This document shows positions 1,476-3,914 of a stretch of DNA of 29,223 nt, in pieces. Numbering within the stretch: the stretch's first letter is position 1; each line of letters starts with the position of its first letter. The notes under the pieces were generated by a model. The model saw nothing but the letters and a program-made list of their open reading frames with translations, was not told where the DNA came from and ran no database searches. The translations under genes and the position numbers were made by a program. The DNA comes from a virus (taxonomy: Duplodnaviria > Caudoviricetes), in IMG/VR virus record IMGVR_UViG_3300017756_000069, positions 1 through 29,223 of that record, one strand, 5' to 3'.

Positions 1476-1701
1476 AGCTGTTGAAGAATTAATAAAAGTA
1501 GCTAAAGAACCTATAGTTGAAACTGAAGATGATGTTTCTGCTGATAGATTAAAAAATGCTGCAGCAACAAAAAAGTTAGCTATATTTGATGCTTTTGAAA
1601 TACTAAACAGGATTCAAGAAGAAAAATCTTTGCTAGAAAACAAACCTATAGAAAAGAAAACTGAAGCTTTTAAAGGTTTTGCAGAAAGAAGAAGCAAATA
1701 A
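1429..1701 (+). CDS. Putative terminase small subunit, 90 aa helical protein
   Basis: Immediately upstream of and coupled (TAATG at 1699-1703) to terL; helical with basic C-terminus FAERRSK; function assigned by position only. Confidence 0.5.
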   Translation: MNIKETKSSIIQAGYRAVEELIKVAKEPIVETEDDVSADRLKNAAATKKLAIFDAFEILNRIQEEKSLLENKPIEKKTEAFKGFAERRSK

Positions 1702-3914
1702 TGTACAAACAAAGTTTATATAGAATAATAAATCCTGTTAAGATAAACAAGTTAAAGAGATTTAATAAATCTAAAAGGTGGGAGTATGGCTACAATAAAG
1801 AAGAAGATCTAGTAATTATAAGTAAGACAGGTCAAATAGGAGATGTGTATAGCATACAAAACTTAAACATAGCTTTACCACCTATGCCTAAAATAAACAA
1901 GCAAGACAACAAGTGGGTTAAAAAAGAATACCCTAAAGAGCTTAGCAGAATAAAAACTATATTTGATTGGAAGACTTACCCAGATGATTTTAAACAAAAC
2001 TGGGAGCCGTATATAGATGAAGAATTTAAAAGACGTGACGAAGGGTATTGGTTCTACAATAAAGATGAGCCTACTTATGTTACTGGTACTCATTACATGT
2101 ACTTGCAGTGGACCAAGATTGATGTTGGGGCCCCTGAATTTAGAGAAGCAAATAGATTATTCTTTATATTCTGGGAAGCTTGCAAGGCAGACAGCCGCTG
2201 TTATGGAATGTGCTATCTTAAAAACAGACGATCCGGATTTTCTTTTATGGCGTCATCAGAAACAGTTAACTGGGCAACAATTTCATCTGATTCACGGTTT
2301 GGTATATTGTCCAAATCTGGGGCCGATGCTAAGAAAATGTTTACCGATAAAGTTGTACCAATATCAGTCAACTACCCTTTTTTCTTTAAACCAATACAAG
2401 ACGGTATGGATCGTCCCAAAACCGAACTTGCATATAGAGTACCCGCATCAAAGCTCACGCGTAAATCTATACAGTCAGGGCAGACGAGGGAAGAGCTTGA
2501 AGGACTTGATACAACAATCGACTGGAAGAACACGGGCGATAACTCCTACGACGGTGAGAAACTTAAACTCCTTGTACATGACGAATCGGGTAAATGGGAA
2601 CGGCCGGACAACATCCTCAACAACTGGCGGGTCACGAAGACAACGTTGAGACTAGGTAGTAGAATTATAGGTAAGTGTATGATGGGATCTACGAGCAATG
2701 CTCTAGACAAAGGTGGTGATAATTTTAAAAAGCTTTATTATGATTCAGACGTCACTAAAAGAAACCGCAATGGACAGACTCGCTCAGGACTATATAGTTT
2801 GTTTATACCTATGGAATGGAACTACGAAGGATTCATTGATTCTTATGGAGTACCTGTATTCGACACTCCAAAAAAAGAAGTTAAAGGTCCTTATGGGGAA
2901 AGCATAGATATAGGTGTTATAGAGCACTGGGATAATGAAGTAGACGGTTTAAGAGGTGATCAAGACGCTTTAAACGAATATTACAGACAGTTTCCGCGTA
3001 CAGAAGAACACGCGTTTAGAGATGAAACTAAAAACAGTATATTTAATTTAACAAAAATATACGAGCAAATAGATTACAACGAAGCTGTTGCAGATGGATT
3101 GATATCAAAAGGTAATTTTCAATGGAAAAACGGTGTTAAAGACACTGAAGTTGTTTTTATGCCAAATGATCAAGGTAGATTTTTAATATCGTGGGTACCA
3201 GATTTATCTATACAAAACAATGTTATACTTAAAAATGGCATGAAAAAACCTGGTAACGAGCATATTGGAGCTTTTGGTTGTGATAGTTACGATATATCAG
3301 GCACAACCGACGGTAGAGGATCAAAAGGCGCTTTGCACGGACTAACAAGGTTTAGCATGGAAAACGCACCTGCTAACTCATTTTTTTTAGAATATATAGC
3401 TAGACCTCAAACTTCTGAAATATTTTTTGAAGATGTACTTATGGCTTGTATATTTTACGGCATGCCTATACTAGCAGAAAATAACAAACCTAGACTTTTG
3501 TATTATTTTAAAAGAAGAGGTTACAGAGGTTTTAGTATGAATAGACCTGATAAAACCTGGAATAAACTATCGGTTGCAGAAAAAGAAATTGGTGGTATAC
3601 CTAACACAAGCGAAGACATCAAACAGTCTCACGCGGCCGCTATAGAAATGTATATAGAGAACCACGTAGGTCATATTAAAGAAGGTACTTACGGTAATAT
3701 ATATTTCAATAAAACATTAAACGATTGGGCTAGATTTGATATAAATAAAAGAACAAAGTTTGACGCTGCAATTAGCTCGGGATTAGCTATAATGGCATGT
3801 AACAAACATATGTATAGTCCAAAAAGTAGTTATAATAAAGACAAAGTAAATTTAAGTATCGCGAGATACCAGAACAAAGGAACAAGATCAAAACTAATAA
3901 ATAATTATGGCTGA
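1701..3914 (+). CDS. terL: Terminase large subunit
   Basis: Walker A-like LKNRRSGFS (K174), Walker B LLVHDESGK (D294/E295), motif III-like MGST, RNase H-like nuclease GAFGCDSYD (D528) and KFDAAIS; precedes the portal. Confidence 0.95.
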   Translation: MYKQSLYRIINPVKINKLKRFNKSKRWEYGYNKEEDLVIISKTGQIGDVYSIQNLNIALPPMPKINKQDNKWVKKEYPKELSRIKTIFDWKTYPDDFKQNWEPYIDEEFKRRDEGYWFYNKDEPTYVTGTHYMYLQWTKIDVGAPEFREANRLFFIFWEACKADSRCYGMCYLKNRRSGFSFMASSETVNWATISSDSRFGILSKSGADAKKMFTDKVVPISVNYPFFFKPIQDGMDRPKTELAYRVPASKLTRKSIQSGQTREELEGLDTTIDWKNTGDNSYDGEKLKLLVHDESGKWERPDNILNNWRVTKTTLRLGSRIIGKCMMGSTSNALDKGGDNFKKLYYDSDVTKRNRNGQTRSGLYSLFIPMEWNYEGFIDSYGVPVFDTPKKEVKGPYGESIDIGVIEHWDNEVDGLRGDQDALNEYYRQFPRTEEHAFRDETKNSIFNLTKIYEQIDYNEAVADGLISKGNFQWKNGVKDTEVVFMPNDQGRFLISWVPDLSIQNNVILKNGMKKPGNEHIGAFGCDSYDISGTTDGRGSKGALHGLTRFSMENAPANSFFLEYIARPQTSEIFFEDVLMACIFYGMPILAENNKPRLLYYFKRRGYRGFSMNRPDKTWNKLSVAEKEIGGIPNTSEDIKQSHAAAIEMYIENHVGHIKEGTYGNIYFNKTLNDWARFDINKRTKFDAAISSGLAIMACNKHMYSPKSSYNKDKVNLSIARYQNKGTRSKLINNYG
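2017..2649 (+). CDS. Candidate overprinted gene in the +1 frame of terL; putative lipoprotein, 210 aa (alternative start 2065)
   Basis: 633 nt open alternate frame in AT-rich DNA; KMSLLMLLVLIT-C lipobox-like segment (Cys codon 2098-2100); terL codons avoid NTA before purines throughout; local GC rise. Confidence 0.55.
   Translation: MKNLKDVTKGIGSTIKMSLLMLLVLITCTCSGPRLMLGPLNLEKQIDYSLYSGKLARQTAAVMECAILKTDDPDFLLWRHQKQLTGQQFHLIHGLVYCPNLGPMLRKCLPIKLYQYQSTTLFSLNQYKTVWIVPKPNLHIEYPHQSSRVNLYSQGRRGKSLKDLIQQSTGRTRAITPTTVRNLNSLYMTNRVNGNGRTTSSTTGGSRRQR

Follow-up and report, generated by a model that had tools for sequence, protein, structure and literature searches.

Evidence for an overprinted gene, predicted to encode an exported envelope protein, in the terminase ATPase core of a crAss-like podovirus

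Does a long reading frame that crosses the ATPase core of a phage terminase gene encode a second protein, and if it does, what might that protein do? The question is raised by IMG/VR virus record IMGVR_UViG_3300017756_000069 (Duplodnaviria; Caudoviricetes), of which positions 1 to 29,223 were analysed; we refer to this whole stretch of 29,223 nucleotides as the window. In its gene for the terminase large subunit (terL), a preliminary description of the DNA had pointed to a 210-codon open reading frame (ORF) in the +1 frame that spans both nucleotide-binding motifs. We found that this ORF lies at 2017-2649 and indeed crosses the two motifs that we take to be Walker A (2220-2243) and Walker B (2568-2585). 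Judging from comparative sequence analysis, there is strong support for the +1 frame of terL being a real overprinted gene, maintained by selection, for a predicted exported envelope protein. The features on which the argument depends are as follows.

1701..3914, + strand: terL, terminase large subunit, 737 amino acids, the host frame of the hidden ORF (PHROG 6681, E 8.9e-172; ORF list)
2017..2649, + strand: overprinted +1-frame gene, 210 amino acids, ATG start, predicted exported membrane-anchored (lipo)protein (shuffle null; openness of homologues)
2220..2243, + strand: Walker A-like motif of terL, within the overlap (coordinates computed)
2568..2585, + strand: Walker B-like motif of terL, within the overlap (coordinates computed)

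A stop appears in the +1 frame when terL uses an NTA codon before a purine. Within the overlap, 0 of 16 Leu, Ile and Val codons before a purine had been counted as ending in A, as compared to 9 of 14 before a pyrimidine; our recount agrees, and the 17th such codon before a purine is the one that creates the stop of the hidden ORF itself. Outside the overlap A-ending Leu, Ile and Val codons are common, as claimed (13 of 17 before a purine and 27 of 46 before a pyrimidine). The increase in GC content that had been described is also present (0.47 at 2400-2700), and GC at third codon positions is 0.50-0.58 in this interval as compared to 0.20-0.30 downstream. When codons were shuffled synonymously within terL, a +1 frame of 210 codons was reached in 0 of 20,000 shuffles (maximum 200). 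A second null, in which codons were drawn from the codon usage of the window, likewise attained this length in 0 of 20,000 draws (maximum 177), and the longest open +1 or +2 run in the other 12 large genes of the window is 72 codons.

To see how the frame behaves in relatives, we used the best 80 of at least 609 terL homologues (67-82% identical; 81 sequences with the window) and called a sequence open when terL codons 106-240 contain no +1 stop; L045, which begins at codon 108, was counted as open. The frame stays open in 48 of the 80 homologues, as had been anticipated for a real gene, and 49 of the 81 sequences are open where 0.14 would be expected from each genome's own codon usage. The 32 closed homologues have an average of 4.7 +1 stops, and stop counts are bimodal. 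NTA before a purine occurs at 0 of 391 positions in open sequences and at 140 of 285 in closed sequences, whereas NTA before a pyrimidine is used at 0.63 in open and 0.69 in closed sequences, so that stop avoidance is specific to context. Silent sites are near saturation: median third-position identity is 0.49, and 0.62 for the window's nearest relative. After de-duplication (thresholds 0.68 and 0.75), 41 of 73 clusters are open, and the terL tree contains 15 changes between the open and closed states, 13 of which are forced by strong branches. A third collection of 61 loci (12 unscorable, 6 partial) gave 27 open among 43 fully covered contigs. Of the 49 open sequences, 47 have an in-frame ATG ahead of the conserved part, at a variable position; the exceptions are L037, with TTG or GTG only, and L045, whose sequence is incomplete.

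Could such a pattern arise with no second protein, be it by chance, from GC content, by common descent or through an element of terL that acts as RNA or DNA? The hidden protein has no match in Pfam, PHROG or NCBIfam, an Atlas search was likewise empty and the structure model has no confident fold, all of which would suit this explanation. However, the bimodal stop counts, the excess of stop-free sequences over expectation, the near-saturated silent sites and the repeated state changes on the tree argue against it, as do two observations described below, namely two different leader placements and exclusion with an unlinked gene about 25-30 kb away. We therefore regard it as very improbable. Searches of protein databases returned 68 relatives of the hidden protein; the 11 that were examined either are genes predicted in this same frame or join terL and the +1 frame as chimeras, and for this reason the 68 are not independent support. 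The chimeras are probably assembly indels. P0043, P0056, P0063, P0065, P0067 and P0068 pass from one of these two frames into the other, at points that differ among them. Fusion of the hidden ORF to terL by frameshifting was rejected by inference, because the leader has to be N-terminal and ATGs exist. Standard annotation overlooks the hidden gene.

What kind of protein would this frame encode? In the window, the product can be divided as follows.

2017..2103, + strand: predicted signal peptide, residues 1-29, with a basic n-region (composition in open versus closed sequences; start context; model helix)
2068-2097, + strand: hydrophobic h-region of the predicted signal peptide
2104..2106, + strand: Cys30, predicted lipid-anchor residue, in the context Thr-Cys-Thr/Cys-Ser-Gly-Pro, with the slash before Cys30
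2107..2646, + strand: mature tail, basic, enriched in Pro, Arg, Ser and Thr, predicted disordered (composition; model)

The ATG at 2017 stands directly after an in-frame stop, where predicted structure is weak (-2.4 kcal/mol, as compared to -12.6 kcal/mol for the ATG at 2065). The basic N-region and hydrophobic stretch noted in the window hold up among relatives, as both n-region charge (p 4e-5) and h-region hydropathy (p 1e-6) are higher in open than in closed sequences. Several residues that were not used in defining openness track it: Leu at terL positions 124, 128 and 130, and Thr29, Cys30 and Ser31 of the hidden protein (all p <=1e-5 after de-duplication). Cys30 requires terL Leu135 to be encoded by TTG or CTG, which is the case in 37 of 39 de-duplicated open sequences versus 7 of 32 closed sequences (p 9e-11), and three of those seven closed sequences are intact short versions with tails of 54, 83 and 88 amino acids. 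Thr29 is present in 38 of 39 open versus 13 of 32 closed sequences, and Ser31 in 33 of 39 versus 9 of 32. The preliminary description had proposed a lipobox cysteine at Cys28, with Cys30 beside it. Cys28 is uninformative, because it is forced by terL Met133 and all 32 closed relatives have it, and we rejected it as the anchor; it is Cys30 that appears as the selected residue.

The description of the tail as disordered is borne out by prediction: predicted local distance difference test (pLDDT) values are below 50 for residues 32-210, the predicted template modelling score (pTM) is 0.16, and the single helix in the model covers residues 4-30. No transmembrane segment was seen in the mature tail, which in relatives of the window's own clade (the first clade) runs for 108-183 amino acids from the Cys. 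Compared with the corresponding frame of closed genomes, the tail in open genomes is more hydrophilic and contains more Pro, Arg and Ser/Thr. The expectation of reduced synonymous variation was borne out over the leader (0.78 of expected, as compared to 0.86 outside) and contradicted over the tail, where variation is raised (1.06-1.08). Since synonymous diversity is down only over the leader and up over the tail, the tail seems to be selected for composition more than for sequence.

A deeper second clade (L089-L168) places its leader and lipobox differently, within terL codons 88-122. All 80 of its loci are open (74 distinct, including the three such contigs of the first set), the frame starts near terL codon 88, and a Gly-Ser-Cys-Ala lipobox lies 16 codons upstream of the first-clade Cys. 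Gly-Ser-Cys is found in 74 of 74 distinct sequences, with Ser at -1 supplied by the Phe118 codon TTC (74 of 74, versus 17% elsewhere). The -1 position is therefore among the usual Gly, Ala and Ser, and the strict consensus does not include Gly at -2. Where the first clade has its hydrophobic stretch, the second clade has a hydrophilic one. These data agree both with a single origin followed by a shift of the leader and with two origins. Forms similar to the second-clade leader are found in L388, L400 and L404.

Is the first-clade product lipidated? The window protein has the layout of a lipoprotein (type II) signal peptide as given in the accessible text of PMC12889592: a basic n-region, an h-region and a Cys 15-35 residues from the start. 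Counting against lipidation, it has Thr-Cys-Thr-Cys where the consensus lipobox is [LVI][ASTVI][GAS]C (PMC6139136, accessible part). Among 64 lipoprotein candidates, a heuristic pick from about 0.9 Mb of flavobacterial DNA, none has Thr at -1 (Ser in 47, Gly in 7 and Ala in 4), and our literature search gave no support for this residue among the papers listed. The leader of 29 residues is near the long extreme, as only 3 of the 64 candidates have one as long or longer. A real, exported protein that is not lipidated would fit these points and the few open relatives that lack the Cys (L002, L036 and L398); its leader would be an uncleaved anchor or be cut by signal peptidase I, giving a basic protein tethered to the inner membrane or soluble in the periplasm. 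Such a protein is improbable in view of the finding that, after the h-region, no residue is under stronger selection than Cys30, whereas the +2 residue varies among relatives (Ser, Asn, Ala or Gly). In addition, the relative L372 has Ser at -1, the second clade has a canonical lipobox, and the gene that the hidden one excludes, to which we now turn, encodes a textbook lipoprotein.

Two complete genomes illustrate the exclusion. In G001, which is open, the hidden ORF is the only lipobox-like ORF in a six-frame scan. In G002, which is closed, the one lipobox-like ORF is a free lipoprotein gene of 145 amino acids, with a Tyr-rich part followed by a Pro/Thr/Asn/Ser-rich tail, and this gene overlaps the start of a gene of 94-96 amino acids whose product has one transmembrane (TM) segment and an acidic coiled coil. 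The same overlap is found in most closed contigs, with a thioredoxin-like gene and an M15 endolysin gene next. Contigs were chosen by the TM-coiled-coil gene (80 loci), and 76 of these, with 8 more chosen by the lipoprotein, entered a terL search that gave 72 matches at 60 loci, 52 of them scorable. When we performed a whole-record profile search on the 44 records chosen irrespective of the lipoprotein, we found the free lipoprotein in 12 of the 13 closed records and in none of the 31 open ones. Most records are incomplete (8 of the 31 open ones are at least 90% complete), and each spans the usual site of the free gene; G036 and G043 have a broken terL and were scored on the part covered. One of the 12 closed matches, G070, is a different lipoprotein at the same place, and the sole closed exception, G062, has a short embedded version of 54 amino acids. 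All 8 contigs chosen by the lipoprotein are closed. Among 20 neighbour families with at least 4 members, only the free lipoprotein shows exclusion (p 6e-10; next best 0.008). On a tree of 51 rows (G085 omitted), 8 independent pairs change in the same direction 7.7 times and never in the opposite one (p ~0.008). The G070 gene (L361:16552 onward) belongs to a second family of free lipoproteins, Tyr/Trp-rich and then with a Pro/Ser/Asn-rich tail, located before the TM-coiled-coil gene in a stretch with unknown bases.

Homology between the hidden and free proteins was not found: in profile-profile comparison (alignment A1) the probability is 1.4% and only the signal peptides align. Weak matches to the free-protein profile occur in the hidden frames of G004 and G018; scores above 5 bits are reached by 4 open frames and by none of the control frames. 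The two proteins can be compared by composition. Pro, Ser, Thr, Gly, Asn, Gln and Arg together make up 50.5% of the hidden tail, 30.4% of the closed frames and 60.6% of the free protein; the hidden tail and the free protein are both basic, and the periplasmic part of the TM-coiled-coil protein is acidic (net -13 per 100). As the proteins are non-homologous yet mutually exclusive, the hidden gene likely replaces the free lipoprotein gene.

Taken together, these data point to a lipoprotein-like envelope product. The earlier proposal of a real envelope lipoprotein stands in so far as the frame is selected, the product predicted to be exported, Cys30 selected, the second clade equipped with a lipobox and a textbook lipoprotein excluded; the Thr at -1 in the window is the part that fits poorly. 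Of the two roles then considered, spanin-like or exclusion factor, spanin-like is the better. The reading that we prefer, although we give it slightly less than an even chance as a whole, is that the product is likely lipid-anchored at Cys30, replaces the free lipoprotein of the lysis module and most likely acts as an outer-membrane lysis factor resembling an outer-membrane spanin (o-spanin). Ribosomes would start at the ATG at 2017 on the late terL message, and the product would be exported by Sec, then lipidated and cleaved at Cys30, where Thr at -1 is the smallest residue that terL Tyr134 allows. An acidic export signal downstream of the Cys is absent, so the protein would be located in the outer membrane and oriented towards the periplasm. 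Once the holin and the M15 endolysin have done away with the wall, its tail, which is long, basic and unstructured, would make contact with the acidic coiled coil of the single-pass inner-membrane protein of 94 amino acids and help to break the outer membrane. This protein resembles an inner-membrane spanin (i-spanin), which has an N-terminal TM segment and a periplasmic coiled coil. The function appears to depend on composition and length and not on a fold; for this reason an essential gene could give rise to it anew, and lineages would swap the free and hidden versions.

In favour of this o-spanin-like reading are the location in a late gene, the lack of any other lipoprotein candidate in the complete open genome G001, the coupling of the alternative gene to an i-spanin-shaped gene near the M15 endolysin gene, the basic tail opposite an acidic coiled coil, the absence of an acidic surface-export signal and the unstructured, Pro-rich nature of o-spanins. 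Several observations weigh against it. Two genomes, G056 and G088, have short embedded versions of 54 amino acids plus the free gene, and in G016 and G054 the free gene is located after the endolysin gene and not at the TM-coiled-coil gene. G003 (99% complete, closed) has no lipobox ORF at all, so neither the hidden nor the free version is universal. Other small lipoproteins occur alongside the hidden gene in G007, G012 and G078; the exclusion is therefore specific to the long-tailed family. The TM-coiled-coil candidate of 94 amino acids is present in all 44 first-clade records (by construction) and in G007, whereas G006 (98% complete, open, second clade) has no single-pass TM-coiled-coil candidate. 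The TM-coiled-coil protein has no spanin family match and only a weak holin match (E 0.02-0.04). The hidden protein matches no known spanin family in Pfam, PHROG or NCBIfam either, which is weak evidence because spanins are very diverse. Finally, the mature tail of 108-188 amino acids is long as compared to the 40 amino acids of lambda Rz1.

The lack of an i-spanin candidate in G006 and the variable position of the free gene would also suit a different late envelope role for the same lipid-anchored replacement. The product might remodel or mask the envelope, for example by blocking a receptor against superinfection or progeny re-adsorption together with the beta-rich protein described below, or might by itself weaken the outer membrane as a tethered cationic protein. 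The module encodes exported proteins, one beta-rich of about 395 amino acids and one thioredoxin-like, that would be superfluous in a plain lysis cassette, and a cationic peptide can replace spanins, according to the accessible part of bioRxiv 10.1101/515445. In contrast, the hidden gene lies in a late structural gene and its alternative beside the endolysin gene, the product has no acidic surface-export signal after the Cys (such a signal is described in the accessible text of PMC12889592), and the low conservation of tail sequence is a poor fit to specific receptor binding. On this evidence we consider another envelope role possible but rather unlikely.

How does the o-spanin-like reading compare with known systems? 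Like lambda Rz1 in Rz and T7 18.7 in 18.5 (Kongari et al. 2018, PMC6139136, accessible part), the hidden gene is an out-of-frame lipoprotein-type gene within a late gene and has a Pro-rich, unstructured product. These pairs differ from the present case, in which the gene for the terminase ATPase serves as carrier and the candidate partner is about 25-30 kb away. In addition, the hidden product is longer by a factor of 3-4, and a free gene with no homology to the hidden one takes its place in other lineages. The accessible sections of the same paper describe o-spanins as Pro-rich and needing no secondary structure, with non-consensus lipoboxes occurring, and define embedded, overlapped and separated architectures, all of which relate an o-spanin to its i-spanin gene; the word 'terminase' occurs 0 times in its main text. 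The mature part of the hidden protein has no TM segment and is unstructured and Pro-enriched, as in o-spanins, but its gene lies in terL and not in, overlapping or beside an i-spanin gene, and only the excluded free gene overlaps the TM-coiled-coil gene. Because of this position and the departure from the strict lipobox, we do not file the hidden gene as an o-spanin, although its proposed working resembles that of an embedded one. A unimolecular spanin (u-spanin) of the T1 gp11 type was rejected: the tail is hydrophilic, there is no C-terminal TM segment and the low-confidence model has no strands. Excluding most subscription papers and all supplements, our literature search found no paper on a terL-embedded gene, and the accessible texts of PMC8776804 and PMC10136315 describe none.

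Within terL itself, T7 genes 19.2 and 19.3 in gene 19 (NC_001604.1) form a parallel, as two out-of-frame ORFs also lie in the terL of the window (2017-2649 and 2740-2907). The T7 genes have 85 and 57 codons and are annotated 'hypothetical protein', and the terminases come from unrelated phage groups. Elemovirus, Pachyviridae, Pervagoviridae and Maribacter phage Panino share the terL family of the window (31-46% identity) and in most cases the order GroES-terL-portal, and the muzzle domain of the window is of the crAss type. The cultured flavobacterial podoviruses differ in the hidden gene: in 7 cultured relatives and in the environmental genome MW202828 (terL 62%), no long +1 ORF covers the region and the longest +1 run in terL is 39-87 codons. 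Antisense frames of terL are open for 197, 175 and 160 codons in relatives (L084, L085 and L088, which are phi18:3, phi46:3 and phi13:2, and L081 and L086).

A further candidate lies just behind the hidden gene.

2740..2907, + strand: second candidate +1-frame ORF, 55 amino acids, with a conserved Cys and a basic C-terminus, terL codons ~347-402 (stop deficit)

Over terL codons 336-400, observed and expected +1 stops number 20 versus 80, 16 versus 60 and 0 versus 184 in three groups, and the ORF is kept in open, closed and second-clade relatives alike. Its Cys is made possible by TTG or CTG in 140 of 152 sequences, as compared to ~24% and 6% elsewhere, and it has no signal peptide. RNA structure was rejected as the cause of this second conserved stretch, as none was found (mean z -0.13). 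The phiKT gp28 'disruptin' (bioRxiv 10.1101/515445, accessible part) is likewise cationic and without a family, acts at the outer-membrane step where spanins are unrecognised, and with 56 amino acids is near the size of the second ORF, whose size and basic end recall it, as a lead only. The phiKT protein is a short amphipathic peptide, whereas the product of the main hidden ORF is long-tailed and combines a leader with a Cys that is under selection.

The window represents the late region of a crAss-like podovirus, with a GroES-like gene, terL, portal and structural genes and a crAss muzzle domain, and the record is one 29-kb contig only.

28856..29221, + strand: 5' part of the gene for the exported beta-rich protein of ~395 amino acids, first gene of the envelope/lysis module in relatives

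As the contig ends in this gene, the window's own TM-coiled-coil gene, M15 endolysin gene and free lipoprotein site are beyond the sequence. The protein of ~395 amino acids (complete at L185:2805-3998) is conserved, has no family match and gave no hit in a sequence search. With a mean pLDDT of 69, its model consists of successive long beta-hairpins and resembles an outer-membrane barrel. Its gene precedes the TM-coiled-coil gene and the gene for the thioredoxin-like protein, which is also exported; for a phage, such an envelope module is unusual. Around the endolysin and chaperonin genes of G001-G004 there are many short genes, variable in number, whose products are rich in Lys, Pro and Ser and have basic N-termini that are alike. 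A sigma-70 scan gave 12 sites, as compared to 8.9 +/- 2.7 by chance. The hosts of the closest cultured phages are Flavobacterium, Cellulophaga, Maribacter and Tenacibaculum (terL identity 31-46%). Relatives were found in marine runs; the 4 runs examined, of 16 listed, gave contigs of relatives throughout. Many of the bins with relatives are from Bacteroidota, but others are unrelated, so we can only infer that the host is flavobacterial.

At its widest, the finding may amount to a fourth spanin architecture, in which the outer-membrane half arose de novo within the ATPase core of the terminase, at a distance of tens of kilobases from its partner and with two solutions for the leader, and is swapped back and forth with an unrelated free lipoprotein gene across an abundant group of marine crAss-like phages, with a second hidden peptide of 55 amino acids just behind; we hold this full picture tentatively and think it on balance doubtful. 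The locus is an unusually clean natural case of gene birth by overprinting, and it affects an essential motor gene where that gene is most conserved. Its control is built in: some near relatives have the hidden gene and others lack it, and in those that lack it an ordinary gene, unrelated to the hidden one, is present. One can therefore test which gene is replaced by a de novo gene and with how little sequence an envelope lysis factor can manage. The locus further provides a lead on the outer-membrane lysis step in flavobacterial phages and on genomes without a found spanin, which the accessible part of PMC6139136 puts at ~13%. If the picture of a fourth spanin architecture is true, some 'spanin-less' phages would hide the missing gene in their packaging gene.

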